Source: Rhizophagus irregularis (Eukaryota). From it: a stretch of DNA of 64,000 nt. Below, piece after piece: positions 5,871 to 35,408 of the stretch (position 1 is the stretch's first letter; every line of letters begins with the position of its first letter). The notes under the pieces are model-generated. The model was not told the DNA's origin. It ran no database searches and was given only the letters and a program-made list of their open reading frames with translations. The position numbers and the translations under genes were made by a program. The DNA is taken from the NCBI RefSeq assembly GCF_026210795.1, contig NC_089433.1, positions 1,488,001-1,552,000 on the forward strand. The letters are read 5' to 3'.

Positions 5871-5874
5871 AAAA

Positions 5875-8149: not shown

Positions 8150-8806
8150 TATTTCTGATTTTGTATTTTTAATAATTAATAATAAATTTAAACTATTAAA
8201 TGAAATTATTGTAATTTGTAAAATATCAAATAATTTTAAATAAAAATGTATACAATTGGAAGATTTCTTATTGTTATAAATTTATTAAAAAGTTATCAAA
8301 TAGTAAATACAGTCAAACTTCGATGTACCGATACTCTATATACCGATAATTGCTTTTACTGATAAATTTTTGTTATCCCGTTTCATCACTAATAAAAAAA
8401 CCTCATTATGCCGATATTATATATAATTTCACGATGTAACGTATACCGATACAACCTCCTGATCCCTTTATAGTAATGTATATTAAGATGTACTGATAAT
8501 TTTAGTTACACTAGTGTTAATTCCAGCCGGCACTACACTAGTCAAAAACCAGGCAAACATGGCATAGTAGCCTTTATCTTTATTAAATTTATTCGAACTT
8601 TACAATTTACAAAAATAAAAAGAAAAATATAAAAATAAAACTAACTAAAAACAAAGCTATATAGTCTCCTAAGAAAAAATAAAGTAAAAAATTAATCTAA
8701 AAAAAGAAAAATCGCAATACACTAAATTTCCCCAGATCTTCCCCCTTGATATATTTCAAACAAAGTAGAAGCAACTATGCTAACAAAATAACGAATAGCG
8801 CGCCCA

Positions 8807-11800
8807 CTATAAAAATCGACACTCCATCCTGCAAAAGCTGTTATTAAGTAGCACCGTTAGACGACCCATAAAACCCGAAAAGTGATTAAACTAAGGCAAA
8901 CCATATTTTATCGAGTTCTTCAACCAATCGGTTCCGGAGTCACGTGAATCGTGTAGGGTCGGAGGTGGTAAAGATGAGTAAGGTATGTACGTTGACAAAG
9001 GCAAATTAGAAGGCATCGGAGTAGTTTTCATCTTGTAAGTAATATTCATCGCGTTTTTCCATCTACTTTTATCATAAGAACGCGGATTCCAAATTCGTCG
9101 TCTGAATTTTTGAACAAAATTATTGTGAATAGCAGCGATAACCTTAATCGCAGAGTTCCTTGGGATGGATAAATCGACAAATAAGTCAATAAAGAGTTTA
9201 GGCAAACAACCACGGACAAGGGCATAGGAGGACCAATTAGTAGAAGAAAAGGACCAGCATGAAAGAGAGGTAAGTTTAGCGATAAGTGGAGTAGGGTCAA
9301 TATCAGGCCATGTTTCCAGCTTCCAGAAGTTTAGAAAGCAAATGATTTTGATAAGATTGAAGAATCTGTTGCATAGGGACACGACGATTTTTGCACATAA
9401 AAAGGTGCATCAGGTCTTCCATGCGGTCGATACAAGAACGGCAAGTTAATTCGTCCAGTATAAATCTGGTCGAGTCCGTTTCAGCTTTTCCAAAGTAGGC
9501 AAATCATCCAAGAAAAGTTTGAATTTAAAGGTTAAGTGTGCTTGATACGTAATAGGTAAAAGATGCGTCATGAGAGGGAACTTGAAATTTAGAGTAAACC
9601 AAGTAAGTTCCCAGTCAATAATATAATCTATATTAGATGTCAATAAAGAAGTGAAGTGAAAACGCGTTAAATTTAACAAATCACGCATTAACTGCGTTTG
9701 ATAATATAGTTTGAGAAGGTGTCGTGGATTAGATTCACAAACAACATCGTTATCATAGACTAAGACAAAATCATGAGCAGAGGCCAGGTCCATTCCGGAG
9801 ATCAAAATACTAGATGACGCGGTATGGGCAGTATTGGCCAAGGAATCAGCAAAATCGTTTAAATAATTGCAGGAGTGAGCTTTAACTTTAACAGGAAAAA
9901 CTGTCAGATTTTTGGAAAGGATGGTTCGCTCAATAATCGCCCAAAGTTCAAAATTTGTAGTTTTGTAGTACAGACGACTGTTTGAATAGACAAAAGAAGA
10001 ACAACTTCGAAGGTCATCAATGGCAGTTTGTGAGTCAGTATAAATAGTAACTTCTGAGTCGCGCGAAGAAATAGTTAAAACTGCATATATAGCAGCAGCC
10101 TCAGCTTGAGAAGAAGAGGGATTATCTCGTATAAGGCCGTGAGCATAAGTGGCGATGGAGTTAGGAAAACCTGCATCAGGGACTATTTGCATCCAAGACC
10201 AGCCCATAGAAACATCCGGAGTGCCTAAATTAATAAGAGACCCATCAGTGAAAAAGGTATAGCGCGAATCCGAGGAAACGACTAACGGGGAATTTGCAAA
10301 GACAGCAGCAGCCGAGGATTCAATTGTAACAGGAGTAGTAGAGACTATAGCGATATTTGCAGAAGAAGAATCGGAATCAAAATCCAATCTACTATAATAA
10401 AGACGGACACCATCTTCTATATCAGCCCAGGTAAAAGGTGAAGCCACTTCAGAAGTAGTACGTCTAATTCGTTCATTGGTAGTGGGCAAAATAAGCGAAT
10501 GTTGTAGAGAGACCGTAGGCGTACAAAGGGTTAAATCAGCATTCCGTTTTTTGGAAGGAGGCAAAGGAGTATGAGCAGCGCAACCAGGGCAAGGAGAGAG
10601 TCTAATAAGATCACCAGGCGAAGATTCACAATCAGGGGAAATCCAGTGAACAATAGAACAAGTACCACGACTTGTTTGGACCAAGAGTTGTTTGCCAAAG
10701 ATGGGAGAACCATAATCGTCCAACGTGACAATCCAATTTTTTGTAGTAGGAGGAGAGGATGAACAGGGAGCCAATTCATAAGATGAAGAGACAATCTTGG
10801 GCGTAATAATGAAATGATCCAGCAGACGATTGTTGGAATCAGAAATAGTGGTAACTTGTTGAATATCTTTGTACCAATAAGGGATACGGCCAGGGCCACG
10901 TCGTCCAACCAAATTGTCATAATATGCCTTCCAAGAAATTAAATGAGTTCCTTGAGGAGTAACAAGCTGAGATAAATAAAACAGTTGTCATTTCCGCAAA
11001 ATGGGGAAATAAGCTTTAAAGGCTTTAGGCGTCATGCATTCGAATAAAGGAACACATCCATCTGGCAGAGATAAATTCGGAAGCTTCGAAAGTTGAGTAT
11101 GAAGCAAACGAAAGGGAGTAGAAGTTAGAAGAGCAATAGTGCATGCGATATAATCTTTCTTAAAAGAAAATAAAGAAGACCATATAGACCAGTCCTTAAT
11201 TAATAAAGAAGAAATAGGAATCAAAAAATTATATTGAATTAAACACAATCTGTAAATAAAAAGAGATTGAATAATAGAAGAAGAAGAATTAGCCATTAAA
11301 AATAAATTAGTAATATGACATTGTCGTTGATGAGCGAACAAATTAATCAAGCCCAAAGCTTGGGACAAAAATAGAATGGGGTTGGGTAAAGAACGAGAAA
11401 AGTTCGCTTTGTGCTTTACAACAGATCGTATACTTCTCGTTATTAGGTGGCATTCAGGTTCAGACAAGTGGGTAACTTGCATCCGATATTCAAGTTTTGG
11501 TACAAGAACAGCATTATATAAATACATGACTTGTTTAGAAGAGAGCTTTGCGGGTCGGATGGTCGCAGCAAAGGAGCAGCATTCACGTTTGAGTTGCTTC
11601 TTGACAAAATCACGGGAGCTCTTAATGTTAAACCAAACACCTAAAAAACGAAAAGAAGTTGTCATGGAAATTGGGGTAATAGTAATGGAAGGAACACTAT
11701 TTAAAGAGGATAAATCCAAATTAAAAGTGATAGGGGATAAAGTGGAATTCGGAGTCAAAGGCAACGAATTAGTGATTAACACATATTTGTTATGATTGGC

Positions 11801-14436
11801 AGAAGTGTTATTGATCTGATAAAATTCTTCAGTAATGGATAACATAAATTCCATGCCAGCTTTTGACGAGGAAATAAGAGTAGAGTCATCCATAAATACT
11901 AAATTATTAATCTTCAAATCAAGAGAAGGACTTGAAGAATCAATTAAAGACGGTGTAGAAAGAACATAAGGGTCCATCATCTCATTCTTCAGAATAGTAA
12001 GTAAGGGATCAATATAAATGACCCATAAAAGAGGAGAAATAACTTCGCCTTGGTCAATACCAATGCGAACCCTATAGGCAGGCGTAGATCCATGAGCAGT
12101 GAAAATGCGATTAGTGCGTTTCATAAAAAGTGAAAGGATAAACTTAACAGCAGAGGCTGGAAGACGTATACGTTCTAAGGCGAAACGTAACATCGTTAGA
12201 TCCACTGAATCAAAAGCTTTAGAAATATCTTGGGAAAGAATCCAAAGTGGGTTTTTGTTGATATCAGCATCATGGATAATAGATTCTAAAGTAATAATAG
12301 GGTCGCAGCAAGAACCTCCAGGAAGACCAGCGAAGTTACCACCTTTAAGGACATCATGTGAAGCCATAATGGTAGAAAGGCGATTATAAAAAAGTTTGAC
12401 AAGAGATTTCCTAATCATTTCAAGTAGGGTAATAGGGCGAGTATTTTTTAATTGACACTTCCATTCGTGAGGTTTGGGGATGGGAAAAACCATTGCTTGT
12501 AACCATAAGTCAGGAATATCAGCTTTGGAAAGGCATGCTTGAATTAAAATGAGGAGTAAAGCCGAGGTACAAGATCCGAGATGTTTGAGCATTTCATAGG
12601 TAATCATGGAAGGACCAGAGGCTTTACCGTTAGGAGTGGAAGAAACGGTGGATAACCATTCATCAAGGGTAGGGGGATTCATTAAAGAATCATAGATGGA
12701 GGAAGACACATCATCCATAGGTTGATAGGCAGAAGACCATCTATCAGGTAGTGTATCAATAGATACAGGAGGAGTGGACTTTATAGGTACAAAATTTTGG
12801 AAATGGTTAATAACAGCATCATCTATGTCCTTAGGATCAGTTAACAACTGAGGTTGAGTAGGATGGTCGATGAAGACACGGTCCAAAGTGATACGGCGAC
12901 GGGTGCGAGAAAGCGCTGAATCAATAAAGGAGGAAAGGTCAGTTTCAAAATTATTATTCCTATCATCCAAGTGAGCACGGATGGAGGAGTCTTGAAATTC
13001 TTTTTCTTGAAGTAAATGAAATCCCCGTAAGGATTTTGAAAGATTGGATAAATCATCAAGAAGTGACTTGAAATTATCTTGTCGACATGATGAAAGAGAA
13101 GAGGGCAGAATAGGAATGAAAGTAAAAACTTTCTTATATAATTGAAGAATGTTTTAAAGTCGATGCAAATGTATAGACCACTTATGTTCATGAGCAGCAG
13201 AATAAGTTAAAGGATATTTGCGCAATAGACGTATTGAATGCATTAGGCGATTTAAAAACCGATAATTTTGAGTTAAAATTTCCAGATCTTTAGGAACCTT
13301 AGGAGTATAATTATTGCCAACAGTAGGAGAAGGTAGAGTAGCGTTGGCGGATTTAAGGATTCGTGATTGAAGATATTCGCACATCTGATTGATATGCCAG
13401 GAGGAAAAAGTTGATGGTGAAACATCACATAAAGCATCAGCTTTATCAGCAAATTCCGTCCATTGAGTATCAGTTACAGAATCAAATTTGAAAACGTGAC
13501 GCATTTGGCGCTTAAGTTGACGAGCGCGAGCCAATTTGGTAGAGGCAAAAAGTAAAGACATATCATAATATGTAATGACAGGGTTGTGATCAGATGTGCA
13601 GATGTCTTGAGCATTAAAAATACAAGCAGTAAGAGCAAATCCTTTGAGAAGAGGGCAGGACCATACATAATCAACACGAGTAATGTGGTCATTGCGATGA
13701 AAAGGTACCTAAAGAGTCGGAAAGATTAATGGGTGTAAAATCTTCATAACCGTGAGAAAGGAGATGAAAAAGTAATCGGTGTATATGTTTTGAAGCAATT
13801 TGGGGTTGATTAAAATAAATAGGATAATATTTATCTAAATGCATATTAAAATCGCCACAAACAGCATGATAAAAACCAGCCTGTTTAGTAAGGATAAGTT
13901 GTTGAATAAGCAAATCAATAGTGTCAGTGCGCAAAACACTTTCAGCAGGGGGAGGAATATAAATAACAAATATACGCAATTTAACATTGCCTTTGAAGTA
14001 TAAATCAACAGAAAGCAGTCGTGAAGAATAGGATTTAAAATCTTGGACATGTGAAGCAAGAGAATTTTCTATAAAAAGGGAAACACCACCAGAAGAAAGA
14101 ATTTGTTTAGAAGTATCCAAATTCGAGGAAAACACAGTATAATTAGAAAGACGTTTGGATAAAAACTTCATTTGTTTGGGGTGGAGATGAGTATCAACGA
14201 TACCACCAAAGGAAATATGTTTTAAGGAAAAAAAAGAGGAAATTTCTTCCAATTTAGTCTGACCATACATTTTAAGGCCATTAACATTGAAGGAGGAAAT
14301 ATTAAATGAGTTAGGGATAGGAGAAGTGTTACTTAGAAGAAGAAAATAAAGATTCATGTGAAAAAATTTCAGTAACATTATCAGGGTTGGGAGGGTTTCG
14401 TACAAAGGTATCATAATTAAAATTATTGTCCGACAT
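8807..14436 (-). pseudogene. LINE A ORF2 (endonuclease, RT, RNase H, C-terminal Cys/His domain), disrupted
   Basis: ORF pieces with NVNGL/GDFN, QDISKAFDSV, GIDQGEVISP, FMDD, FTDGS..AEAAA..TDSQ..KVKAH. Confidence 0.93.
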
Positions 14437-14486
14437 TAAAACACAATGATAAAAACAGTCGGGGAGTTAAAATTTGAAGAAGAAAA

Positions 14487-16609
14487 TTAAACAGAAGAAG
14501 CTGAATCAGCTTGTTCCAGGGGAGCACCACCAATGGAGCTAATGAATTGTTTGATATGACCAGTGAGTTGGTCCAATTTACTTTCAATAACGACTCTACT
14601 ATTTTTGAGATCGTTAATTTCTTCTTGCGTGGAGGAGATAGGGGTAAAAGAAGGAGCATTTGGGGAAAGGTGAGAAGGAGGGGCGACGTGTTAGGAACAA
14701 GAATAGTAGGAGGCGGAGGTCACGTTAAAATACTTCTGGGGGTAAAGGAGATTTAGCGGAAGGCTGAATAATAAGCGGAACATGGGATACAGGAGCATCT
14801 TCTTGCATGAGATCCAAGTCAGGTTCATTAGGTGTAGAAAGCGGATCAAGGCCAAGGTGTGATTCAATACGAGTCATCCTTTGGTCAGCAAGTTCAAGAG
14901 CGGAAATGCGTTTGTGAAAATTAGCGACTTCGCATTGCAATTCACGTAAGAGATTTAAAATATTATTAGCATCATCAGAAGATAATGCAGAATTAGGAGT
15001 TTGTCGGGGCAAGGGACGTGCGGTAGAACGAGAAGAGGAAGAAAAAGAGACCGATCATTCTTTACTATTATGCCGAGCACGTTGGGAGGTATTGGGATTG
15101 TGTATGTTATGATTATTAACATTATTATTGCGGTCATAAGAACTGTTATTAGCACGTCCGGAATCATGAGTAGATCGATCTTTGGATTTTGAGCGAGATC
15201 GGGAGCGAGAACGTGTATTAGCAGCATTAGAGTTGGAGCGGCGAGGTTGATTGACATTAAATCGTTCTTTGAGTTTTGCTACAGGGTCGCGAGTGCGACT
15301 TCTACCTCTGGTTGATTTTAGTGGGCAAAAATTAGGAGCGCAACCTAATTTGCCACATCTGTGACAAAGTTTATTGGTATTATCTGGGGAGAACCAGAAA
15401 AGCACTTTGCCTTGGAAGCTGACAGTCTGTTCCATAGCAGCATCCATGGTTTCTTGGGAGTTGAAGGTGACGTAAGCCCATCTTTTGGGTTTGTAAGAAT
15501 TTAAAGAAAGTGGAACATTGACAGCCTTAGCGCCAAGGTCACGGGTAAGAGGAGCCAAGTTGATATCCTTAACATTGGGGGGAAGTTGAGTGAGGGTGGC
15601 AACGTATTGACGGCACGCAGCCTTTTGATCCACAGTATAGAAACACAGAGTAATTCTGAGGCAGGTGGAGAAACAGTACACGGCCCATTGGTCGGTAAAA
15701 TGAGCAATTGAATCGGCGTGATTATACACAATGCGGGCTTGCTGGACTTTGGCATTAGGCCTGGAGAAGAGGCGGCAAGACGTGATATTACCAAATTTTT
15801 TAAAATAAGCCATGAGGTTGTCTTTTTTAATGAAGAAAGGGATATTGGTAACTTGGATAGCCCGGAGATCTTCATTAGATCGGAGTTGGCGAGGGTCATG
15901 TGCATGAAAGATTAAGTCAGGGAATTCAGGATGAGTGGAACCAACGCACAAATCGCGTGCTTCAGCGGTATGGAAGTGGATAACGAGGCGTTTGGCTTCA
16001 CCAGAGCCAGTCGTACGTGCTTTTCCAGTAAACGGACTCGTAAGTTTCTAAAAAAAGGTTATTAACAGCCTCAATAAGGGCTTTGTTGGTAGGGAATTTC
16101 TTAAGAGATTCAGGGGCAGCATTCGGCGCAGCCGCAGCCTGAAAATCATCTCTGGTTATGGCGAGGGTCACCACTGGATCTGGAGTTTGATCGTTATCTG
16201 GAGCACCATTGGTATCCAAATTGGGTGACGCGTTAGGGGGTTGTTGCAAGTCTTTATTCGAAGGTGCATGCATGGACGCGTCCACATTTCCAGAAGACGC
16301 GACGTGACTGGGCGCAGTTGGCGCAGCAGATTTTTTCGGGGAGGAGGTCAAAGTATTTTCGCCAAAGATATTTTGTTGAGGAGAAGAGGAAGGTCCATCT
16401 ACTCCAACGTCAGCCGTCTGGTCATCGGCAACATAGTCTTCTTCCATAGAATTTTCGGTAATCGTACGATTACGTTTCTGCTGGACAGTATTTTCACCAT
16501 CGGAGCTTGAGTTATCAGAGTTATTATTATTTTTTCGTTCTTGACGGGAAGCTTTCCTACTGTTAGGGTTATGACTTTCACGGCCTCTCTTGGCATAGTT
16601 ACCAGACAT
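14487..16609 (-). pseudogene. LINE A ORF1 (gag-like: RRM-like region, zinc knuckle, RS-rich tract, coiled coil), disrupted
   Basis: IQVTNIPF..FKKFGNI and WAYVTF RNP-like motifs; CHRCGKLGCAPNFC; RSRSRSRSKS. Confidence 0.88.
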
Positions 16610-16763
16610 AGTAGAGGGCTTTGAATTGGGAATATATAAAATATAAAATTTTATTAGTAACTTGTATTATTTTTTTAAAAATAATAAAAAAATTATTTTC
16701 ATCGGAAATTTTCGTTTTTGAAAAATTCAGGAAAGAGTTCACTACTACTACTAGTCAAAAACC

Positions 16764-18170
16764 AGGCAAACGTGGCATAGTAGCCTTTATCTTTATTAAA
16801 TTTATTCGAACTTTACAATTTACAAAAAAATAAAAAGAAAATATAAAAATAAAACTAACTAAAAACAAAGCTATATAGTCTCCTAAGAAAAAATAAAGTA
16901 AAAAATTAATCTAAAAAAAGAAAAATCGCATTACACTAAATTTCCCCAGATCTTCCCCCTTGATATATTCCAACCAAAGTAGAAGCAACTATGCTAACAA
17001 AATAACGAATAGTGCGCCCACTATAGAAATCGACACTCCATCCTGCAAAAGCTGTTATTAAGTAGCACCGTTAGACGACCCATAAAACCCGAAAAGTGAT
17101 TAAACTAAGGCAAACCATATTTCATCGAGTTCTTCAACCAATCGGTACCGGAGTCACGTGAATCGTGTAGGGTCGGAGGTGGTAAAGATGAGTAAGGTAT
17201 GTACGTTGACAATGGCAAATTAGAAGGCTTCGGAGTAGTTTTCAACTTATAAGTAATATTCATCGCGTTTTCCCATCTATTTTTCTCATAAGAACGCGGA
17301 TTCCAAATTCGTTTTCTGAATTTTTGGACAAAATTATTATGAATAGCAGCGATAACCTTAATCGCAGAGATTCTTGGAATAGACAAATCGACTAAGATGT
17401 CAATAAAAAGTGTAGGTAAACAACCACGGACAAGGGCGTATGAGGACCAATTTGTAGAAGAAAAGGACCAGCATGAAAGAGAAGTGAGTTTAGCAATAAA
17501 GGGAGTAGGATCAATATTAGCCAATTTTCCAGCTTCCTGAATTTTAGAAATCAAATGATTTTGATAAGATTGGAGAATTTGTTGCATAGGTAGACGACGT
17601 TTTTTGCACATAAAAAGGTGCATCAGGTCCTTCCATGCGATCGATACAAGAACGGCAAGTTAATTCGTCCATGTATAAGTCTGGTCGATCCGCTTAAGCT
17701 TTTCCAATGTGGGTAAGTCGTCCAAGAAAAGTTTGAATTTAAAGGTTAAGTGTCTTGAAGCATCTTTTCGAGTAAAAAGATGCATCATGAGAAGGCTTGA
17801 AATTCAAAGTAAACCAAGTAAGTTCCCAGTCGACAATATATTCTATATTAGATAATAATAAAGAAATAAAGTGAAATCGCGTTAAATTTAACAAATCACG
17901 CATTAACTGCGTTTGATAATACTGTTTAAGAAGGTGTTGTGAATTAGATTCACAAACGACGTCATTGTCGTAAGTCAAGACGAAATCATGGGCAGAAGCA
18001 AGGTCCATTCCAGAAATCAAAATACTGGATGATGCGGTATGGGCAGTATTGGCCAGGGAGTCAGCAAAATCGTTCAAATAATTGCCAGAATGAGCTTTAA
18101 CTTTAACAGGAAGAACTGTCAAATTCTTGGTAAGGATTGTTCGTTCAATAATGGCCCAAAGCTCAAAATT
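16764..18170 (-). mobile_element. LINE copy B, 5'-truncated inside RNase H (~1.4 kb)
   Basis: Same 3' UTR as A; encodes NFELWAIIER..KVKAHSGN to the ORF2 end. Confidence 0.95.
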
Positions 18171-18463
18171 ACTAGTCAAAAACCAATATATCGGGTAGCA
18201 GACATGTATCAGATATGTACCCGATATGTGTAGTATTAATGCAGAAAATCGGGTACCCGATATGTGTAAGATATGTGTAAATATATATATCGTCTACATA
18301 TCATATACATATCATATACATATCGGTACCCGATATGTATATGATATATATATTTACATATATCTTACACATATCGGGTACCCGATTTTCTGCATTAATA
18401 CTACACATATCGGGTACATATCTGATACATATCTGCTACCCGATATATTGGTTTTTGACCAGT
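18171..18463. mobile_element. Palindromic CACTA/EnSpm-type MITE core
   Basis: ACTAGTCAAAAACCAATATATCGGGTAGCAGA ... TCTGCTACCCGATATATTGGTTTTTGACCAGT; >110-bp near-perfect inverted arms with repeated TATCGGGTA/TACCCGATA motifs. Confidence 0.92.
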
Positions 18464-19720
18464 ACTGATGATCGTACTTTCTCCCCCGTTGGGCTCTGCC
18501 CATTTTTTCCCATGAAGTTATGGATGAAAAATATGAGGATTTTTTGCCTTGAGTGATAGTAAAAGGACTTTTCGATGTTATATGAAGTTATTACCGAGGT
18601 CTTTAGTTTCGCCCGAACTCCTTACAGCTTATATTGAGTTAGGACCGTTATCATGAGTCTTGGAGTTACCAATATTACTGTAAGATGGCAGTTCCATACG
18701 AACGTTCCTCTGGGCTTTCTGAAAGGTTGAAAAGTAGTGCGTCTTGGTTCCTACGCCTTTAAAGTCTAACTGGCCGAGTGGTTCGCAGGCCGGACCGGTA
18801 TTTCTTGGAAGGAGCTCCTGACTAACGTATTTCTTGTTAGTTGATGTTGTTAACTGGGGAGTTAGTCTTCTAAAATAAGGAGACGGAGTTGAGGTGTATG
18901 TTTGGTGAATTTTACTCAGGTTTTTCTCATTGCACTTCGAGTTTTCCTGAGGTTTATGTCTTTATTTTTTGCTTTTTGTTTTTACTTGGTCGCTTTTTCG
19001 GTGTAACCTTATTTTCTTTGGGGGTGGGGGGATACTGGAAAATTTGATCGTCATGGTGGCTTGGTGTTACAATTTTAAAATCGATCATCATTGGGGTGAT
19101 AAGGGGGTGACAGGTTGGGTACCGCAGTTTTTGTAGTATGCCGATCATGGTGGTCACATGTTGGACTTTCATTGGATTGACTTATCTAGGTAGATCTTAG
19201 GTCGATGGATCGTTCGCAATGAGGTGGGTGTCCTCCGTTTGGGATCATTCGCAATGAGGTGGGTGTCCCCTCGGGGATTGCACGACACTAAAAAGTTCCC
19301 CATCGGCTGGACTGCACGACACTAAAAAGTTTCTGGAGGTCTTTGTGAAATAGGTTTGTTATCCATAGTATGTAGTCAAATAGGGGAAATTGAATTTTAT
19401 GTATTTCTGATAGTGCTAATGGTAGCTCGGAGGTTCTTTACCGATTCTAGGAGTGGGTACGGCGCTGGATGGGTTACGTATAGCATAGTCGACTTTACTC
19501 ATTTTGAGATATATTTGGGGGGAGTAGCCGTAGTTATTTAATATAGAGAGGGTGGGGTTTATAATCTTAGCTTTTCTTATTTGTAATTATTGGAAGATTA
19601 TTTGTTCTTTGTTTTTCTATTAGTTCTGCACTTGTTGCGGTGCTTTTTAGATTACTTTGTTTTCTCTAAAGTCACTTCGGCATTAATTAATAAAATTCAA
19701 GCTCAAGCTATGTTTACCTT
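18464..19720 (+). mobile_element. Element E: 1.26-kb retroposed insert of a different family sharing the LINE target and a similar 3' end
   Basis: Flanked on both sides by TGGTTTTTGACCAGTA; 3' end TTAATAAAA..AAGCTCAAGCTATGTTTACCTT resembles the LINE end TTAATAAAGATAAAGGCTACTATGCCACGTTTGCCT; no long ORF. Confidence 0.75.
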
Positions 19721-22074: not shown

Positions 22075-25000
22075 ATGTCGGACAATAATTTTAATTATGA
22101 CAACTTTGTACGAAACCCTCCCAACCCTGATAATGTTACTGAAATTTTTTCACATGAATCCTTATTTTCTTCTTCTAGTAACACTTCTCCTATCCCCAAC
22201 TCATTTAATATTTCCTCCTTTAATGTTAATGGCCTTAAAATGTATGGTCAGACTAAATTAGAAGAAATTTCCTCTTTTTTTTTCTTAAAACATATTTCCT
22301 TTGGTGGTATCATTGATACTCATCTCCACCCTAAACAAATGAAGTTTTTATCCAAACGTCTTTCTAATTATACTGTGTTTTTCTCGAATTTGGATACTTC
22401 TAAACAAATTCTTTCTTCTGGTGGTGTTTCCCTTTTTATAGAAAATTCTCTTGCTTCACATGTACAAGATTTTAAATCCTATTCTTCACGACTGCTTTCT
22501 GTAGATTTATATTTCAAAGGCAATGTTAAATTGCGTATATTTGTTATTTATATCCCTTCCCCTGCTGAAAGTGTTTTGCGCACTGACACTATTGATTTGC
22601 TTATTTAACAACTTATCCTTACTAAACAAGCTGGTTTTTATCATGCTGTTTGTGGCGATTTTAATATGCATTTAGATAAATATTATTCTATTTATTTTAA
22701 TCAACCCCAAATTGCTTCGAAACATATACACCGATTACTCTTTCATCTCCTTTCTCATGGTTATGAAGATTTTACACCTATTAATCTTTCCGACTCTTTA
22801 GGTACCTTTCATCGCAATGACCACATTACTTGTGTTGATTATGTATGGTCCTGCCCTCTTCTTAAAGGATTTGCTCTTACTGCTTGTATTTTTAATGCTC
22901 AAGACATCTGCACATCTGATCATAACCCTGTCATCACATATTATGATATGTCTTTACTTTTTGCCTCTACCAAATTGGCTCGTGCTCGTCAACTTAAGCG
23001 CCAAACCTGTCGCGTCTTCAAATTTGATTCTGTAACTGACACTCAATGGACGGAATTCGCTGACAAAGCTGATGCTTTATGTGATGTTTCATCTTCAACC
23101 TTTTCCTCCTGGCATATCAACCAAATGTGCGAATATCTTCAATCACGAATCCTCAAAGCTGCCAACGTTACTTTACCCTCTTCTATTGTTGGCAACAACT
23201 ATACTCCTAAAGTTCCTAAAGATCTGGAAATTTTAACACAACATTATCAGTTTTTAAATCGCCTAATGCATTCGATACGTCTTTTGCGCAAATATCCTTC
23301 AACTTATTCTGCTGCTCATGAACATAAGTGGTCTATACATTTGCATAGAATTCAAAATATTTTCCAATTATATAAGAAAGTTTTTACTTTCATCCCTATT
23401 TTGCCCTCTTCTCTTTCATTGTGTCGCCATGACAATTTCAAGTCACTTCTTGACGATTTATCCAATATTTCGAAATCCTTACGGGGATTTCACTTACTTC
23501 AAGAAAAAGAATTTCAAGACTCCTCTATTCGTGCTCATTTAGACGATAGAAATAATAATTTTGAGACTGACCTTTCCTCTTTTATCGATTCAGCGCTTTC
23601 TCGTACTCGTCGCCGCATCACTTTGGATCGTGTCTTCCTCGACCATCCTACTCAACCTCAGTTATTAACTGATCCCAAAGATGTAAATGATGCTGTTGTT
23701 AACCATTTCCAAAACTTTGTACCTATAAAGTCCACTCCTCCTGTATCCATCGATACATTACCTGATAGATGGTCTTCTGCCTACCAACCTATGGATGATG
23801 TGTCCTCCTCTATCTATGATTCTTTAATGAATCCCCCCACCCTTGACGAATGGTTATCCACCGTCTCTTCCACTCCTAACGGTAAAGCCTCTGGTCCTTC
23901 CATGATTACCTATGAAATGCTTAAACACCTTGGAACCCGTACCTCGGCTCTGCTCCTGATATTAATTCAAGCATGCCTCTCCAAAGCTGATATTCCTGAC
24001 TTATGGCGACAAGCAATGGTTTTTCCCATCCCTAAACCTCACGAATGGAAATGTCAATTAAAAAATACTCGCCCTATCACCTTACTTGAAGTGATTAGGA
24101 AATCTCTTGTCAAACTTTTCTATAATCGCCTGTCTACTATTATGGCTTCACATGATGTTCTAAAAGGTGGTAACTTCGCTGGTCTTCCTGGTGGTTCTTG
24201 TCGCGACCCTATCATTACTCTGGAATCTATTATCCATGATGCTGATGTCAACAAAAACCCACTTTGGATTCTTTCCCAAGATATCTCTAAAGCTTTTGAC
24301 TCGGTCGATCTGACAATGTTACGTTTTGCTTTAGAGCGTATACGTCTTCCAGCTTCCGCTGTTAAGTTTATCTTATCGCTTTTCATGAAACGCACTAATC
24401 GCGTTTTCACCGCTCATGGATCTACGCCTGCTTATAGGGTTCGCATTGGTATTGACCAAGGCGAAGTTATCTCTCCTCTTTTATGGGTTATTTATATTGA
24501 TCCCTTACTTACTGTTTTGAAAAATGAAATGATGGACCCTTATGTTCTTTCTACACCGTCTTTAATTGATTCTTCAAGTCCTTCTCTTGATTTGAAGATT
24601 AATAATTTAGTATTTATGGATGACTCTACTCTTATTTCCTCGTCAAAAGCTGGCATGGAATTTATGTTATCCATTACTGAAGAATTTTATCAGATCAATA
24701 ACACTTCTGCCAATCATAACAAATATGTGTTAATCACTAATTCGTTGCTTTTGACTTCGAATTCCACTTTACTCCCTATTACTTTTAACTTGGATTTATC
24801 CTCTTTAAATAGTGTTCCTTCTATTACTATTACCCCAATTTCCATGACAACTTCTTTTCGTTTTTTAGGTGTCTGGTTCAACATTAAAAGCTCCCGGGAT
24901 TTTGTCAAAAAGCAACTCAAACGTGAATGCTGCTTATTCGCAGCGACTATTCGCCCCGCAAAGCTCTCTTCCAAACAAGTTGTGTATTTACATAATGCTA

Positions 25001-27694
25001 TCCTTATACCGAAACTTGAATACCGGATGCAAGTTACTCACTTATCTGAATCTGACTGTCACCTAATAACGAGAAGTATACGATTTGTTGTAAAGCATAA
25101 AGCAAACTTTTCTCTTTCTTTACCCAATTCCATTTTATTTTTGTCTTATGCCTTGGGCTTGATTAATTTGTTTGCTCATCAACGACAATGTCATATTACT
25201 AATTTATTTTTAATGGCTAATTCTTCTTCTGTTTTTATTCAATCTCTTTTTATTTATAGATTGAGTTTAATTCAATATAATTTTTTGATTCCTATTTCTC
25301 CCCTTTTAATTAAAGATTGGTCTATATGGTCTTCTCTATTTTCTTTCAAGAAAGATTATATCGCATGCACTATTGCTCTCTTGTCTTCTACTCCTTTTCG
25401 TTTGCTTCATACTCAACTATCGAAGCTTCCGAATTTGTCCTTGTTAGATGGACGCGTTCCTTTATTTGAATGCATGACGCCTAAAGCCTTTAAAGCCTAT
25501 TTTCCCATCCTGCGTAAACAACAACTGTTTTATTTATCTCAGCTTCGTTACTCCCCAAGGAACTCATTTAATTTCCTGGAAGGCTTACTATGACAATTTG
25601 GTATGACGATGTGGCCCTGGCCGTATCCCTTATTGGTACAAAGATATTCAACAAGCTACCACTATTCCTGACTCCAATAATCGTTTCCTGGATCAGTTTA
25701 ATTTTACGCCTACGATTGACTCTTCCTTTTATGATTTGACTCCTTGTTTATCTTCTCCTCCTACTACAAAAAATTGGATTGTCACGTTGGACGATTATGG
25801 TTCTCCCATTTTTGGCAAACAACTTTTAGTCCAAGCTAGTCGTGGTACTTGTTCTATTGTTCACTGGATTTCTCCTGATTGTGAATCTTCACCTGGTGAT
25901 CTCATCAGACTTTCTCCTTGCCCTGGTTGCGCTGCTCACATTCCTCTGCCTCCTTTCAAAAAACGGAATGCTGATTTAACCCTTTGTACACCTAAGGTCT
26001 CTCTACAACATTCGCTTATTCTGCCCACTACCAATGAGCGGATTAAACGTACTACTTCTGAAGTGACTTCCTCTTTTACTTGGGCTGATATAGAAGATGG
26101 TGTCCGTCTTTATTGTAGTAGATTGGAATTTGATTTTAATTCTTCTCCAGCAGATACCGTTGTAACTTCCGTTACTCCTGTTACTATTGAATCATCGGCT
26201 GCTGCTGTTTTTGCTAACTCCCCGTTGGTCATTTCTTCAGACTCGTGTTACATCTTTTTCACTGATGGGTCTCTTATTAATTTAGACACTCCCGATGTTT
26301 CTATGGGCTGGTCTTGGATGCAAATAGTCCCTGATGCAGGCTTTCCCAACTCCATCGCCACTTATGCTCACGGTCTTATTCGTGATAATCCTTCTTCTTC
26401 TCGTGCTGAAGCTGCTGCTATTTACGCTGTTTTAACTATCTTTCCTCGTGATTCTGAAGTCACTATTTATACTGACTCGCAAACTGCCATTGATGGCCTT
26501 CGAAGTTGTTTTTCCTCTATCTACTCAAATAGTCATTTGTACTATAAAACCACAAATTTTGAACTTTGGGCTATTATCGAGCGAACCATCCTCTCTAAAA
26601 ATTTGACTGTCCTTCCCGTCAAAGTTAAAGCTCATTCTGGCAATTATTTAAACGATTTTGCTGATTCCTTGACCAATACTGCTCATACTGCGTCATCCAG
26701 TATTTTGATCTCTGGAATGGACCTGGCCTCTGCCCATGATTTTGTCTTAATTTATGACAATGATGTTGTCTGTGAATCTAATCCGTGACACCTTCTAAAA
26801 CAATACTATCAAACGCAGTTAATGCGCGATTTGTTAAACTTAACGCGCTTTCACTTTATTTCTTTATTATCAACTAATATAGATTATATTGTTGACTGGG
26901 AACTTACTTGGTTCACTCTAAATTTCAAGCCCTCCCATGACGCGTCCTTTGCTCCTGAGCACGCTTCAAGACACCTTACCTTTAAATTCAAACTTTTCTT
27001 GGATGATTTGCCTACATTGGAAAAGCTTAAACGGACCCGACCAGACTTATACATGGACGAATTAACTTGCCGTTCTTGTATCGACTGCATGGAAGACCTG
27101 ATGCACCTTTTTATGTGCAAAAAACGACGTCTGCCTATGCAACAAATTCTCCAATCTTATCAAAATCATTTGATTTCCAAACTTCTGGAAGCGAGTAATT
27201 TGGCTGATATTGATCCTACTCCATTTATAGCTAAACTTACTTCTCTTTCATGCTGGTCCTTTTCTTCTACAAACTGGTCCTCCTTCGCCTTTATCCGTGG
27301 TTGCTTACCCAAACTCTTCATCGACTTATTTGTTGATCTATCCATTCCAAGAACTTCTGCGATTAAAGTTATCGCTGCTATTCATAACAATTTTGTCCAG
27401 AAATTCAGAAGACGAATCTGGAATCCGCGTTCTTATGAGAAAAGTAAATGGGAAAACGCGATGAACATTACCTATAAGTTGAAAACTACTCCGAAGCCAT
27501 CTAATCTGCCATTGTCGACGTACATACCTTACTCATCTTTACCACCTCCGACCCTACACGTTTCACGTGACTCCAGAACCGATTGGTTGAAGAACTCGAT
27601 GAAATATGGTTTGCCTTGGTTTAATCACTTTTCGGGTTTTATGGGTCGTCTAACGGTGCTACTTAATAACAGCTTTTGCAGGATGGAGTGTTAA
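22075..27694 (+). pseudogene. LINE C ORF2 (APE-RT-RNase H-Cys/His), disrupted
   Basis: ORFs of 177, 975, 350 and 290 aa carrying the same motifs; CRSC..EDLMHLFMC at the C-terminus. Confidence 0.93.
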
Positions 27695-27978
27695 TTTTTA
27701 TAGTGGGCGCGCTATTCGTTATTTTGTTAGCATAGTTGCTTCTACTTTGGTTGGAATATATCAAGGGGGAAGATCTGGGGAAATTTAGTGTAATGCGATT
27801 TTTCTTTTTTAGATTAATTTTTTTTACTTTATTTTTTCTTGGGAGACTATATAGCTTTGTTTTTAGTTAGTTTTATTTTTATATATCTTTCTTTTTATTT
27901 TTGTAAATTGTAAAAGTTCGAATAATTTTAATAAAGATAAAGGCTACTATGCCACGTTTGCCTGGTTTTTGACCAGTG

Positions 27979-30900
27979 GCTGTATACTGTTTCTCCACCT
28001 GCCTCAGAATCACTCCATGTTTCTATACTGTAGATCAAAAGGCTGCGCGCCATCAATACGTCGCCACTCTCATTCAGCTTCCCCCTAATGTTAAGGATAT
28101 CAACTTGGCTCCTCTTACTCGTAATCTTGGCGCCAAAGCTGTTAATGTGCCACTTTCTCTAAACTCTTACAAACCCAAAAGATGGGCTTTACGTCACCTT
28201 CAACTCCCAAGAAACCATGGATGCTGCTATAGAACAAACTATTAGCTTCCAAGGCCATGTACTTTTCTGGTCCTCCCCAAATAATACTAATAAACTTTGT
28301 CACAGATGTGACAAATTAGGTTGCGCCCCGAATTTCTGCCCACTTAAACAAACTAAAGGTAGAAGTCGCACTCGCGACCCTGTTGCAAAACTCAAAGAAC
28401 GTTTTAATGTTAATCAACCTCGCCGCTCCAATTCAAAGACTGCTAATGCACGTTCTCGCTCCCGATCTCACTCCAAATCTAAAGATCGATCTGCTTCCAA
28501 TTCTGGACGTGATAACAACATTCCCCATGATCGCACTAATAATGATAAAAATCATAACAAACCCGCTCCCTATATCTCCCAACGTGCCCGCCATAATAGC
28601 AAAGAACGATCGGTCTCCTTTTCTTCCTCCTCTCGTTCTACAGCACGTCTTTCGCCCTGACAAACTCCTAACTCTGCATTATCTCCTGATGATGCTAATA
28701 ACATTCTAAACCTTTTGCGTGAATTACAATGTGAAGTAGCCAACTTTCACAAACGCATCTCCGCTTTTGAACTTGCTGACCAACGGATGTCTCGTATTGA
28801 ATTACACCTTGGCCTCGATCCACTTCCTTCGCCTAATGAGCCTGACCCGGATCTCATGCAAGAAGATGCCCCTGTTACTCATGTTCCGCTTAATATTCAG
28901 TCTTCCGCTAAATCTTCTTTGCCCCCCAAAAGTATTTTAACGTGACCTTCGCCTACAATCACTATTGTTCCTCACACGTCGCTCCCTCCTTCTCACCTTT
29001 CTCCAAATGCTCCTCCTTTTACCCCTCTCTCCTCCACGCAAGAAGAAATTAACGATCTCAAAAATAGTAGAGTCGTTATTGAAAGTAAATTGGACCAACT
29101 TACTGGTCATATCAAACAATTCATTGGCTCCCTTGGTGGTGCTCCCCTGGAACAAGCTGATTCAGCTTCTTCTGTTTAATTTTCTTCTTTAAATTTTAAC
29201 TCCCCGACCGTTTTTATCACTGTGTTTTAATGTCAGACAATAATTTTAATTATGACACCTTTGTACGAAACCCTCCCAACCCCGATAATGTTACGGAAAT
29301 TTTTTCACATGAATCGTTATTTTCTTCCTCTAGTAACACTTCTCCTATTCCCAACTCATTCAATATTTCCTCCTTTAATGTTAATGGCCTTAAAATGCAT
29401 GGTCAAACTAAATTAGATGAAATTTCTACTTTCTTTTCCTTGAAACATATTTCTTTTGGTGGTATCGTTGATACTCATCTTCACCCTAAACAAATGAAGT
29501 TTTTATCCAAGCGCATTTCTAATTATATTGTATTCTCTTCTAATTTGGATACTTCTAAACAAATTCTTTCTTCTGGTGGTGTTTCTCTTTTTATAGAAAA
29601 TTCTTTTGCTTCACATGTACAAGATTTTCAATCCCATTCTTCACGTTTGCTTTCTGTTGATTTATATTTTAAAGGCAATGTTAAATTGCGTATATTCGTT
29701 ATTTATATCCCTCCCCCTGCTGAAAGTGTTTTGCGCACTGACACTATTGATTTGCTTATTCAACAACTTACCCTTACTAAACAAGCTGGTTTTTACCATG
29801 CTGTTTGTGGCGATTTTAATATGCATTTAGATAAATATTATCCTATTTACTTTAATCAACCTCAAATTGCTTCAAAACATATTCACCGATTATTTTTTCA
29901 TCTCCTTTCTCATGGATATGAAAACTATACTCCTATTAATCTTTCCAACTTCTTAGGTACTTTTCATCGCAATGACCAAATTACTCGCGTTGATTATGTA
30001 TGGTCCTGCCCTCTTCTCAAAGGATTCGCTCTTACTGCCTGCATCTTTGACGCTCAAGACATTTGCACATCTGATCATAACTCTGTTATCACATACTATG
30101 ATATGTCTTTACTTTTTGCCTCTACCAAATTGGCTCGCACTCGACAACTTAAGCGCCAAACCCGTCGCGTCTTCAAATTTGATTCTGTAACTGATATTCA
30201 ATGGACGGAATTCGCTGTCAAAACTGATGCTTTATGTGATGTTTCACCTTCAACCTTTTCCTCCTGGCATATCAACCAAATGTGCGAATATCTTCAATCA
30301 CGAATCCTCAAAGCTGGCAATGCTACTTTACCTTCTTCTATAATTGGTAACAATTATACTCCTAAGGTCCCTAAAGATCTGGAAGTTTTAACTCAACATT
30401 ATCGGTTTTTAAATCGCCTGATGCATTCGATACGTATATTGCGCAAACATCCTTCAACTTATTCTGCTGCCCATGAACATAAGTGGTCTATTCATTTGAT
30501 TAGACTTCAAAACATATTACAATTATATAAGAATGTATTCACTTTCATTCCTATTTTGCCCTCTTCTCTTTTATCATGTCGACAAGATAACTTCAAATTA
30601 CTTCTTGATGATTTATCTACTATTTCAAAATCCTTACGAGGATTTCAGTTGCTTCAAGAAAAAGAATTCCAAGACTCCTCCATCTGTGCTCACTTGGACG
30701 ATAGAAATAATAATTTTGAAACTGACCTTTCTTCCTTTATCGATTCAGCGCTCTCACGCACCCGTCGCTGTATCACCTTGGACCGTGTCTTTATCGACCA
30801 TCCTACTCAACCCCAGTTGTTAACTGATCCTAAGGACGTAGATGATGCTGTTGTTAACCATTTCCAAAACTTTGTACCTATAAAATCCACTTCCCCTGTA

Positions 30901-33900
30901 TCTATCAACACATTACCTGATAGATGGTCTTCTGCCTATCAACCTATGGATGATGTGTCCTCCTCTATCTACGATTCTTTAATGAATCCCCCTACCTTTG
31001 ACGAATGGTTATCCACCGTTTCTTCCACTCCTAACGGTAAAGCCTCTGGTCCTTCCATGATTACCTATGAAATGCTCAAACATCTTGGTACCCGCACCTC
31101 GGCTCTGCTACTTATTTTAATTCAAACATGCCTTTCCAAAGCTGATATTCCCGATTTATGGAGACAAGCAATGGTTTTTCCCATCCCCAAACCTCACGAA
31201 TGGAAATGTCAATTAAAAAATACTCGTCCTATTACTTTACTCGAAGTGATTAGAAAATCCCTTGTCAAACTTTTTTATAATCGCCTTTCTACTATTATGG
31301 CTTCACATGATGTTCTTAAAGGTGGTAACTTCGCTGGTCTTCCTGGTGGTTCTTGCCACGACCCTATCATTACTCTAAAATCTATTATCCATGATGCTGA
31401 TATCAACAAAAATCCACTTTGGATTCTTTCCCAAGATATTTCTAAAGCTTTTGACTTGGTCGATCTGACTATGTTACGTTTTGCTCTAGAACGTATCCGT
31501 TTTCCAGCTTCCGCTGTTAAGTTTATCCTTTCACTTTTCACGAAACGCACTAATCGCGTTTTCACTGCTCATGGATCTACGCCTGCTTATAGGGTTCGCA
31601 TCGGTATTGACCAAGGCGAAGTTATTTCTCCTCTTTTATGGGTTATTTATATTGATCCCTTACTTACTGTTTTGAAGCATGAAATGATGGACCCTTATGT
31701 TCTTTCTACACTGTCTTTAATTGATTCTCCAAATCTTTCTCCTGATTTGATGATTAATAACTTAGTATTTATAGATGACTCTACTCTTATCTCCTCGTCG
31801 AAAGCTGGCATGGAATTTATGCTATCCATTACTGAAGAATTTTATCAGATCAATAACACTTCTGCCAATCATAACAAATATGTGTTAATTACTAATTCAT
31901 TGCCTTTGACTTCGAATTCCACTTTATCTCCTATTACTTTTAATTTGGATTTATCCTCCTTAAATAGTGTTCCTTCCATTACTATTACCCCAATTTCCAT
32001 GACAACTTCTTTTCATTTTTTAGGTGTTTGGTTTAATATTAAAAGCTCCCGGGACTTTGTCAAAAAGCAACTCAAACGCGAATGCTGCTCGTTCGCTGCA
32101 ACCATCCGCCCCGCAAAGCTCTCTTCCAAACAAGTTGTGTATTTACATAATGCTGTTCTTATACCGAAACTAGAATACCGGATGCAAGTTACTCACTTGT
32201 CTGAATCTGACTGCCGCCTAATAACGAAAAGTATACGATCTGTTGTGAAGCATAAAGCAAATTTTTCTCGTTCTTTACCCAATCCCATTTTATTTTTGTC
32301 TCAAGCCTTGGGCTTAATTAATTTGTTTGCTCATCAATGTCAACGTCATATTACCAATTTATTTTTAATGGCTAATTCTTCTTCTTCTTTTATTCAATAT
32401 CTTTTTATTTATAGATTGTGTTTAATTCAATATAATTTTTTGTTCCCTATTTCTCCTCTTTTAATTAAGGATTGGTCTATATGGTCTTCTTTATTTTCTT
32501 TTAAGAAAGATTATATCGCTTGCACTATTGCTCTCTTAACTTCTACTTCTTTTCGTTTGCTTCATATTCAACTTTCGAAGTTTCCGAACCTATCCTTGTT
32601 AGATGGACGCGTTCCTTTATTTGAATGCATGACACCTAAGGCCTTTAAAGCCTATTTCCCTATTTTGCGAAAATGACAATTGTTTTATCTATCTCAGCTT
32701 GTTACTCCCCAAGGATCTCATTTAATTTCCTGGAAGGCTTACTATGACAATTTGGTTGGGCGACGTGGCCCTGGCCGTATCCCTTTTTGGTACAAAGATA
32801 TTCAACAAGTTACCACTGTTCCTGACTCCAATAATCGTCTGCTGGATCATTTTATTATTATGCATACGAATGACTCTTCATTTTATGAATTGGCTCCTTG
32901 CCTATCCTCTCCTCTCACTACAAAAAATTGGATTGTCACGTTGGACGATTATGGTTCTCCCATCTTTGGCAAACAACTTTTGGTCCAAGCAAGTCATGGT
33001 ACTTGTTCTATTGTTCACTGGATTTCTCCTGAATGTGAATCTTCGCCTGGTGATCTTATTAGACTTTCTCCTTGCCCCGGTTGCGCTGCTCATACTCCTT
33101 TGCCTCCTTCCAAAAAACGGAATGCTGATTTAACCCTTTGTACGCTCACGATCTCTCTACACCATTCGCTTATTCTGCCCACTACTAATGAGCGAATTAG
33201 ACGTACTACTTCTGAAGTGACTTCCCCCTTTACTTGGGGTGATATAGAAGATGGTGTCCGTCTTTATTATAGTAGATTGGATTTTGATTCTGATTCCCCT
33301 TCTACTGATACCGTCGTAGCTCCTGCTACTCCTGTCACTATTGAATCCTCAGCTGCTGCTGTTTTTGCAAAATCCCCGTTGGTCATGTCTTCGGACTCGC
33401 ATTACATCTTTTTCACTGATGGATCTCTTATTAATTTAGGCGCTCCTGATGTTTCTATGGGCTGGTCCTGGATGCAAATTGTTCCTGATGCAGGTTTTCC
33501 TAACTCCATTGCCACTTATACTCACGGCCTTATTCGAGATAATCCTTCTTCTTCTCGAGCTGAAGCTGCCGCTATTTACGCAGTTTTAACCATCTCTCCT
33601 CGCGACTCAGATGTTACTATTTATACTGACTCGCAGACTGCCATTGACGGCCTTCGAAGTTGTTCTTCCTATGTGTACTCAAATAGCCGCCTTTACTACA
33701 AAACAACAAATTTTGAACTTTAGGCTATTATTGAATGAACCATCCTTTCCAAAAATTTGACAGTTTTTCCTGTTAAAGTCAAAGCTCACTCTGGCAACTA
33801 TTTAAATGATTTTGCTGATTCCTTGACCAACATTGCTCATACTGCGTCATCCAGTATTTTGATTTCTGGCATGGACCTTGCTTCTGCCCATGATTTTGTC

Positions 33901-35114
33901 TTAATTTATGACAATGATGTCGTCTGTGAATCTAATCCGCAACACCTTCTCAAACAATATTATCAAACGCAATTAATGCGTGATTTGTTAAATTTAACGC
34001 GATTTCACTTTACCTCTTTATTGTCATCTAATATAGATTATATTGTTGACTGGGAACTTACTTGGTTTACTTTAAATTTTAAGCCCTCTCATGATGCATC
34101 TTTTACTTCTGAACACGCTTCAAGACACCTAACCTTTAAATTCAAACTTTTCTTGGATGATTTGCCTACATTGGAAAAGCTTAAACAGACCCGACCAGAC
34201 TTATACATGGACGAATTAACTTGCCGTTCTTGTATCGACTGCATGGAAGACCTGATGCACCTTTTTATGTGCAAAAGACGACGTCTACCTATGCAACAAA
34301 TTCTCCGATCTTATCAAAAACATTTGATTTCCAAAATTCTGGAAGCAGGAAATTTGGCTGATATTGATCCTACTCCATTTATTGCTAAACTCACTTCTCT
34401 TTCTTGCTGGTCCTTTTCTTCTACAAATTGGTCCTCCTATGCCCTTGCCCGTGGTTGTTTACCCAAACTCTTCGTCGACTTATTTGTCGATTTATCCATT
34501 CCAGGAATTTCTGCGATAAAGGTTATCGCTGCTATTCATAACAATTTTGTTCAGAAATTCAGAAAACGAATTTGGAATCCGCGTTCTTATGAGAAAAGTA
34601 AATGGGAAAACGCGATGAACATTACCTATAAGTTGAAAACTACTCCGAAGCCATCTAATTTGCCTTTGTCAGTGTACATACCTTACTCATCTTTACCACC
34701 TCCGACCCTACACGATTCACGTGACTCCGGAACTGATTGGTTGAAGAACTCGATGAAATATGGATTGCCTTGGTTTAATCACTTTTCGGGTTTTATGGGT
34801 CGTCTAACGGTGCTACTTAATAACAGCTTTTGCAGGATGGAGTGTCGACTTTTATAGTGGGTGCGCTATTCGTTATTTCGTTAGCATAGTTGCTTCTACT
34901 TTGGTTGGAATATATCAAGGGGGAAGATCTGGGGAAATTTAGTGTAATGCGATTTTTCTTTTTTAGATTAATTTTTTACTTTATTTTTTCTTAGGAGACT
35001 ATATAGCTTTGTTTTTAGTTAATTTTATTTTTATATTTTTCCTTTTAATTTTTTGTATATTGTAAAATTCGAATAAATTTAATAAAGATAAAGGCTACTA
35101 TGCCACGTTTGCCT
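27979..35114 (+). mobile_element. LINE copy D, 5'-truncated within ORF1 (~7.1 kb)
   Basis: Begins at ORF1 AVYCFSTCLRI directly after the target motif; same 3' UTR. Confidence 0.95.
29230..34857 (+). pseudogene. LINE D ORF2, single frame (~1875 codons) broken only by nonsense codons
   Basis: ORFs starting at 29230, 32680 and 33757 share one frame; stops at 32674, 33721 and ~33736. Confidence 0.93.
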
Positions 35115-35408
35115 GGTTTTTGACCAGTGCTATAAGTTTGGCCTGAGTTAAAAAATTGTAACTTTAAAATTTGAGCATCATTCTTAATTATGTCTGGAAT
35201 TGGATTTTTTTCTATAATCATATTCACATTATACATAATATATTCAAGAAATTTTGGAAATTTTGGACTTGGAATTAAGTATAGTGCGAGCCAGAGTTAG
35301 ATTTTGGCCTGCATTATAATCCACTAATTACATATATGTACCGATATTTCAATGTACCGATACTTTTTTCCCAAACCGGAAGCATCAGTATATCGAAGTT
35401 TGACTGTA

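Follow-up and report, generated by a model that had tools for sequence, protein, structure and literature searches.

A putative site-specific LINE of Rhizophagus irregularis stacked on the terminal-repeat tips of a CACTA-type MITE

A 64 kb stretch of the Rhizophagus irregularis genome (contig NC_089433.1, positions 1,488,001 to 1,552,000; termed the window) carries five inserts stacked on the two ends of a palindromic miniature inverted-repeat transposable element (MITE). Four inserts (A to D) are copies of one long interspersed nuclear element (LINE) family that encodes an apurinic/apyrimidinic endonuclease (APE), a reverse transcriptase (RT) and RNase H, and one (E) shows no detectable homology to them. 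We consider it very probable that this LINE family targets the tip of the CACTA terminal inverted repeat (TIR). The mechanism that we favour, as the probable one, is site-specific target-primed reverse transcription (TPRT) at both tips of the CACTA MITE, in which the APE endonuclease would nick at the tip and each insertion would duplicate 15 bases.

The array and its inserts

The target-site duplication (TSD) discussed here is the 15-mer TGGTTTTTGAC[T/C]AGT, which corresponds to positions 2–16 of the MITE TIR. With up to one mismatch allowed, it occurs seven times in the window, each time as an exact match, against a mean of 0.01 and a maximum of 1 in shuffled sequences (n = 100). All seven copies stand at insert junctions, one per junction of the five inserts, as a preliminary description of the locus had claimed (the left outermost copy begins at 8537, with the terminal C at 8536). 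The array is laid out as follows, in window coordinates.

8533–8535, plus strand: left 3 bp target duplication (CTA) of the MITE, equal to 35130–35132
8536–8551, minus strand: outermost left TIR tip, a complete CACTA end made of the terminal C and a 15 nt TSD copy, T variant
8552–16749, minus strand: LINE copy A, full length, 8198 bp; open reading frame (ORF) 1 from 16609, ORF2 from 14436; stops and frameshifts
16750–16764, minus strand: TSD copy, T variant, at the 3′ end of B and the 5′ end of A
16765–18170, minus strand: LINE copy B, 1406 bp, 5′-truncated within the RNase H region
18171–18463, no strand assigned: MITE core, 293 bp, with tips at 18171–18185 and 18449–18463
18464–19719, plus strand: insert E, 1256 bp, between the right end of the MITE and C, with the same TSD
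19720–19734, plus strand: TSD copy, C variant, between E and C
19735–27962, plus strand: LINE copy C, full length, 8228 bp; ORF1 from 19877, ORF2 from 22075; broken
27963–27977, plus strand: TSD copy, C variant, at the 3′ end of C and the 5′ end of D
27978–35113, plus strand: LINE copy D, 7136 bp, 5′-truncated within ORF1; ORF2 from 29230 in one frame with three stops
35114–35129, plus strand: outermost right TIR tip, a complete CACTG end
35130–35132, plus strand: right 3 bp target duplication (CTA) of the MITE

Each of the inserts has TIR positions 2–16 at its borders, with exact junctions, and lies in a single orientation, its 3′ end directed outward. The left form of the 15-mer, TGGTTTTTGACTAGT, is found on the minus strand at 8537, 16750 and 18171 and carries the T variant in three of three copies, whereas the right form, TGGTTTTTGACCAGT, is found on the plus strand at 18449, 19720, 27963 and 35114 and carries the C variant in four of four; each copy equals the nearby MITE end. 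Because the variant tracks the side of the MITE in all seven cases, we take the 15-mer to be a target-site duplication copied from the local target, and for the same reason we rejected the idea that it is a piece of the LINE's own 3′ end.

The MITE (18170–18464) is a 92% self-complementary palindrome that is non-coding and carries short subterminal repeats of the ATATCGGGTA type within its core. Its terminal base (C/G) is absent at both ends of the core and retained at the outermost tips (8536 and 35129), which read CACTA on the left and CACTG on the right; the full end motif is CACT[AG]GTCAAAAACC. The trinucleotide CTA flanks both outer ends, a single instance for which the chance of a 3-mer match is approximately 0.02. 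These observations bear out the earlier statement that the outermost copies keep the complete transposon end and its 3 bp duplication. The CAC..GTG termini and 3 bp TSD seen here are the marks used for classing fungal EnSpm/CACTA elements (PMC12730594). No CACTA transposase partner for the MITE was found, and scans with the TIR gave no match.

Two further repeats lie near the array. A second palindrome, decayed to 73%, occupies 35297–35508 just to the right and is possibly another MITE. A small repeat in two inverted copies that are 79% alike (8283–8452 and 36867–37032) flanks the array at a distance and is similar at its start to a Tc1/mariner-type end.

Copies A–D form one APE-RT-RNase H family with pairwise identities of 90.8–93.0%, and they show the traits of APE-type non-LTR (long terminal repeat) retrotransposons: a TSD, a common 3′ end, 5′ truncation and APE ahead of RT in ORF2. 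Their last 21 nt are identical apart from one change in A and directly abut the 15-mer, with no poly(A) at any of the four 3′ ends. The 5′ head of copy A has AGT repeats and contains the tip pieces AGTAGTAGTG, and that of copy C, AGTGACCAGTAGT, is likewise built from TIR-tip pieces. All four copies are disrupted by three or four stops, three of them by frameshifts as well, and no CpG-biased decay was seen.

Among A, C and D, 63–66% of the ORF2 differences fall at third codon positions (307/467, 330/512 and 306/484; p < 1e-42). Neutral duplication on the spot would not produce this bias; the copies therefore became different while under selection, in source elements of their own, before they reached the array. 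On the sequence evidence, A–D are independent insertions from separate source elements. The preliminary description, which had called the copies diverged, B and D 5′-truncated and all of them independent retrotranspositions, thus holds on the strength of the side-specific T/C variant, the third-position bias and the junctions at other loci that are described below. A and C (8552–16749 and 19735–27962) are 96–97% alike over most of their 5′ 3 kb and 88–95% alike beyond it, a mosaic that suggests subfamilies have recombined or that the template was switched from one to another.

A different history would start from one chance insertion at each MITE end; tandem duplication, gene conversion or mis-assembly of similar copies would have done the rest, and there would be no family-wide targeting. 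The close likeness of A and C over most of their first 3 kb would fit such a local pile-up, as would the observation that no contig spans 16400–18250, which leaves the assembled array without read confirmation. However, the truncation points differ among copies, their divergence is biased to third positions, the unrelated insert E bears the same TSD, CTA matches at both outer ends and tip junctions exist at other loci. We regard this history as very improbable.

Insert E shows no homology to A–D by blastn/tblastx, tblastn or hidden Markov model (HMM) comparison, nor to the 402–405 fetched proteins of the clade. A likeness to the C-terminus of the clade proteins that seemed plausible by eye did not hold up in HMM and shuffle scoring. 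Rfam gave no hits and ARAGORN no tRNA, hence no head of a short interspersed nuclear element (SINE) was found, and E is without poly(A). Its last 40 nt resemble the tail of the LINE family to a degree that only 0.25% of 2000 shuffles equalled, although this length was picked after inspection. We infer a retro origin for E, which is likely to be a second family or a SINE-like passenger sharing the same site. The preliminary description had counted five retro-insertions; because E lacks homology to A–D, that count stands for four.

Junctions at other loci and in gene models

To the stretch 16400–18250 we aligned one raw RNA run and the contigs of three public runs (X1, X4 and X7), each from a different study. 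The resulting list covers 15 of 21 joints; a further 575 loose ends are unlisted. Five of the 15 listed joints lead from LINE to tip, four of them to 18170/18171 (from 16742, 16747 and 17000 in X1 and from 16989 in X7) and the fifth, from 17625 to 16750 (X1), being a tandem junction. Two more LINE-tip junctions connect 16739 to 18170 (X1) and 17623 to 18179, the latter with the remaining tip letters lying between the two sides (X1 and X7). In all, X1 and X7 supply seven LINE 5′ end/tip junctions additional to those of the window, six of which are LINE-to-MITE, and X4 contains none of the seven. No listed joint lies deeper in the MITE arm, which offers 61 eligible positions; for five joints this corresponds to a chance of (2/61)^5, or approximately 4e-8. 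Four of the outside junctions have truncation points that are absent from the window, and at one a T-variant target is followed by a C-variant head. That the motif might never precede 5′ ends had been named beforehand as one observation that would speak against targeting; it precedes 5′ ends at all listed LINE-to-MITE joints. Together with the side-specific variant and the third-position bias, the junctions at other loci also uphold the earlier proposal that the tip is duplicated and the target regenerated.

Exact scans for the LINE 3′ end gave no matches in viral contigs or in metagenomes, and two exact bacterial matches, which have no LINE or TIR context, were taken as chance. Scans with TIR and junction sequences likewise returned nothing. 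Three related loci in metagenomes are short and distant (27–34% identity) and show no visible target, and searches of viral and prokaryote contigs for related loci gave none. The junction peptide, used as a protein query, found nothing at E ≤ 10, which carries little weight as evidence.

Gene models offer another view of LINE junctions, for five models among 405 fetched proteins read across the LINE 3′ end. P0180 of R. irregularis (PKB93425.1) runs from the LINE 3′ end through the tip peptide WFLTS-G into an unrelated flank. P0214, P0217 and P0222/P0403 of R. clarus (the last two form one cluster) have LN(F/L).. after the LINE 3′ end and then enter a 5′-truncated second copy; in two of these three distinct junctions the spacer is LNLNS, five codons or 15 nt if unspliced. 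The R. clarus relatives, among them the models GBB94890.1, GBB96011.1 and GBB95082.1, form head-to-tail tandems with a spacer that differs from the R. irregularis tip, which suggests another fixed target in this sister family. Of the 403 proteins that gave hits, 10 have the tail before the head; one of these is an artefact of overlap. Because gene models can splice, such models are only suggestive.

Poly(A) RNA covers the 3′ untranslated region (UTR) of the LINE (16772–17081) to a depth of approximately 1700–1900, and coverage of the ORF is near zero. Moreover, 64% of the RNA reads on 16400–18250 continue into sequence unlike that stretch. Given these depths and the read continuation, it is related families or passengers that seem to produce most of the signal, which therefore reveals little about full-length transcripts. 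The read pile-up on the 3′ UTR is a hint of SINE-like or sister-family transcripts.

Encoded proteins and comparison with known elements

ORF1 yields RNA recognition motif (RRM) hits and a zinc-knuckle-like motif, and ORF2 encodes APE, RT and RNase H (Pfam RVT_1, 3e-20; Exo_endo_phos, weak). The best protein match of ORF2 is a R. irregularis protein with 93% identity, and about 116 of the 120 protein matches listed are from R. irregularis or R. clarus, as read from their names. In the 1873 aa protein P0001, an intact copy, the three domains occupy residues 154–287 (APE), 652–934 (RT) and 1391–1536 (RNase H). A profile match to the L1 endonuclease reaches 4.5e-28, and the predicted fold of the APE domain (pLDDT 89) has the L1 endonuclease as its best PDB match (E = 9e-15). 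The catalytic residues Y, D, N, D and H of the APE are conserved, and its hairpin loop is not the same in the R. irregularis type as in the R. clarus type. RT scores are nearly equal for L1 (1.3e-16) and R2 (1.7e-16). The RNase H profile matches E. coli RNase HI at 1e-18.

Among 50%-identity representatives, 273 proteins matched at E ≤ 1e-30; those with names are from Rhizophagus and Entrophospora, and the remainder derive from environmental contigs. The same three domains are present in most of 12 distant long relatives examined with Pfam alongside two Rhizophagus controls. In a quick tree of 39 of the 62 non-redundant rows, built without reference clades, Rhizophagus families group with those of Entrophospora. 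The entries P0276–P0387 form a broad clade of 1600–2600 aa APE-RT-RNase H proteins, mostly from environmental contigs, that is related to the window LINE.

The RNase H motif KVKAH/KGH carries His and not the archaeal-type Arg in Rhizophagus and in most of the distant relatives checked. Arg in place of His is the criterion for the archaeal-type enzyme (PMC4640811), and membership in the plant L1/Utopia group with its archaeal-type RNase H was rejected since His replaces the expected Arg of the D-E-D-H-D residues.

Tandem stacks of LINEs around a TSD, in DNA transposons that serve as their targets, are already known (PMC4494074). The Tx1-Mar and SINEU-3 elements of crocodilians insert in Mariner-N4_AMi (Kojima, 2015; PMC4494074), and they resemble the present case in joining an APE-type LINE, a non-autonomous DNA transposon as target, tandems around a TSD of similar length and a second, non-coding element at the same site (compare E). 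However, their target lies near position 240 inside the Mariner element, the preference of SINEU is 13–90% and the Tx1 clade is an animal one, whereas the window LINE is fungal, has RNase H and sits at the 15 nt tip of a CACTA-type TIR. It is because the target is this terminal 15 nt that both MITE ends are struck and the arrays face outward. Similarly, Tx1L of Xenopus targets the piggyBac-type Tx1D, and Tx1-9_AMi inserts approximately 300 bp inside Harbinger elements (cited in PMC4494074). These are also site-specific LINEs within DNA transposons whose specificity is credited to the APE endonuclease, but clade, host superfamily and kingdom are different and the site of Tx1-9_AMi is internal. 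The Tx1L target site in Tx1D is internal as well. The apparent preference for a DNA transposon is shared with the Tx1 clade, which is not among the clades that PMC4640811 names as bearing RNase H; because the window LINE has RNase H and is fungal, we have not assigned it to Tx1.

RNase H has been reported for the Proto1 clade (PMC4640811), and Proto1 families are listed in the transposable element library of R. irregularis (Oliveira et al., 2024; PMC11075540), a paper whose main text uses the words 'target' and 'nested' zero times. The literature search returned nothing on TIR targeting by Proto1. Proto1 elements have the domain order APE-RT-RNase H and make TSDs of approximately 15–18 bp that begin with a run of T; the same order is found within one ORF in P0001. 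Proto1 is the likeliest candidate clade for the window LINE, judged by domain content and by the label in the R. irregularis library.

GremLINE1 of Mucorales contains Zf, AP, RVT and zf-RVT domains and no RNase H (10.1101/706580, PMC9963178). It resembles the window LINE in being an APE-RT element of Mucoromycota that accumulates as long inverted arrays, but it differs in its A-rich 3′ end, AT-rich nick sites and pericentromeric location. Identity with GremLINE1 was rejected on the basis of the RNase H domain and the four 3′ ends without poly(A).

The preliminary description knew of no RNase H-bearing fungal LINE with specificity for a TIR tip, and we found no literature report of one, or of any LINE that has a TIR tip or CACTA elements as its target, in a search that did not cover Repbase or most subscription journals; the accessible parts of PMC11943222 and PMC13465315 added nothing to the comparison. 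What appears to be new, as judged from sequence, is therefore a fungal RNase H-bearing LINE on the tip of a CACTA terminal repeat.

Proposed mechanism and implications

In the mechanism that we favour, the strand that starts with CACT would be nicked first, behind TIR base 16, and its 3′ end would prime cDNA synthesis, as the TSD and standard TPRT suggest. On the opposite strand, a second nick one base in from the TIR end would produce the 15 nt stagger. Read-through RNA ending in tip sequence may pair with this primer, and joining of the second strand is likely to be helped by tip fragments at the 5′ end of the RNA. Such fragments are carried by the full-length copies A and C, with one case of the opposite-end variant; because a C-variant head follows a T-variant target at one outside junction, such heads do travel with the element. 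The landing site is self-renewing, since each insertion leaves two target copies, as seen in the structure of the array. The MITE core, by contrast with its outer tips, has lost its terminal base and would be immobilised, its true ends now lying 8–17 kb away. By analogy with Tx1 and R1 (PMC4494074), we rank the endonuclease as the probable selector of the site, above a read-through RNA tail and above a bound protein.

Several observations weigh against targeting as we propose it, or narrow what the data say about it. The joint table requires both sides to lie on 16400–18250, so that junctions with unique DNA are invisible to it; it gauges precision within the MITE and does not give the genome-wide share of LINE copies on target. 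At a loose end at 17482 (X7, three contigs) the LINE body passes into AT-rich non-TIR sequence, which may reflect an insertion into a LINE copy instead of an off-target landing. Among the gene models that read across the 3′ end, one of five enters the R. irregularis tip and four of five (three junctions, all of R. clarus) enter the other spacer; the clade as a whole therefore does not share the 15-mer of the window as its target. Where L1-type APE has its first metal-binding Glu, the Rhizophagus proteins compared carry Asp (VDTH), and Entrophospora and distant relatives carry Glu (the APE domain in the window lies at 29320–30099). For E, 346 of 500 shuffles scored as high as the insert itself against the HMM of the clade C-terminus. 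Finally, in the shared region the private amino acid changes number 10 in A against 7 in B and 8 in D against 5 in C, differences too slight to place the insertions in order of age.

This last trend, in which outer copies have slightly more private changes, also suits a mechanism in which a bound protein (transposase, a partner that binds the subterminal repeats, or chromatin) or breaks at CACTA ends recruit the LINE. The endonuclease then need not read the 15-mer, and the newest copies would lie beside the MITE core with older ones pushed out. Use of the same site by the unrelated element E fits recruitment, as do a second break one base from the transposon end and the excess of LINE-to-MITE joints among outside junctions (six of seven). 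That excess, however, is also expected from the choice of the stretch 16400–18250, and the trend in private changes is small. The first nick sits 16 bases inside the TIR, and we know of no CACTA transposase that cuts there. We judge recruitment unlikely.

The RNA itself could also choose the site, if a read-through tail of tip sequence picked out complementary nicked DNA and the endonuclease were lax. All four LINE 3′ junctions are exact, without poly(A) or added bases, and the tip fragments at full-length 5′ ends, together with the junction of T-variant target and C-variant head, imply that target sequence travels in RNA; the R. clarus relatives have another spacer, although their 3′ end is nearly unchanged. 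Against this, no read proves read-through and RNA depth drops approximately tenfold around the 3′ end, and target choice in Tx1 and R1 is credited mainly to the endonuclease (PMC4494074). Selection by RNA–DNA pairing is in our estimation improbable, and selection by the endonuclease remains the reading that we prefer.

A wider proposal extends this preferred reading to the clade, whose members would all specialise on CACTA tips, with families and species retargeted to different 15-base tips, in part steered by RNA, and with the elements acting as hyperparasites that disarm DNA transposons and gain a self-multiplying safe site. Were its Ser codon AGT, the R. clarus spacer L-N-L-N-S would have a CACT terminus at its end. 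We find this proposal conceivable yet doubtful.

Elsewhere in the window, exons of host genes are found for a SNF2 helicase (2906–3421), SIP1/Gemin2 (41538–42155) and a Kelch-repeat protein (46347–47030), and a 370 aa open frame at 38408–39520 has a Uma2 restriction-endonuclease-like domain (E = 1e-10). Degenerate tandem repeats occupy 232–909 (unit of approximately 186 bp), 5100–5890 (approximately 135 bp), 56300–57060 (approximately 147 bp) and 60939–61248 (approximately 154 bp).

Most target-specific non-LTR families fall in three groups, namely early-branching elements, Tx1 and R1 (PMC4640811), and a fungal RNase H-bearing clade with a fixed 15 nt target would represent a further origin of specificity. 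The TIR tip is present twice per transposon, is doubled by each insertion and is needed by the host transposon to move. The array would thus be a clear case of a parasite of a parasite, and such elements could have a shaping influence on the genomes of arbuscular mycorrhizal fungi, which are large and half repetitive. The sister families of R. irregularis and R. clarus, with near-identical 3′ ends and different targets, offer a natural pair for asking whether an endonuclease loop or an RNA tail sets the target, a question that bears on the use of LINEs for site-specific gene insertion.

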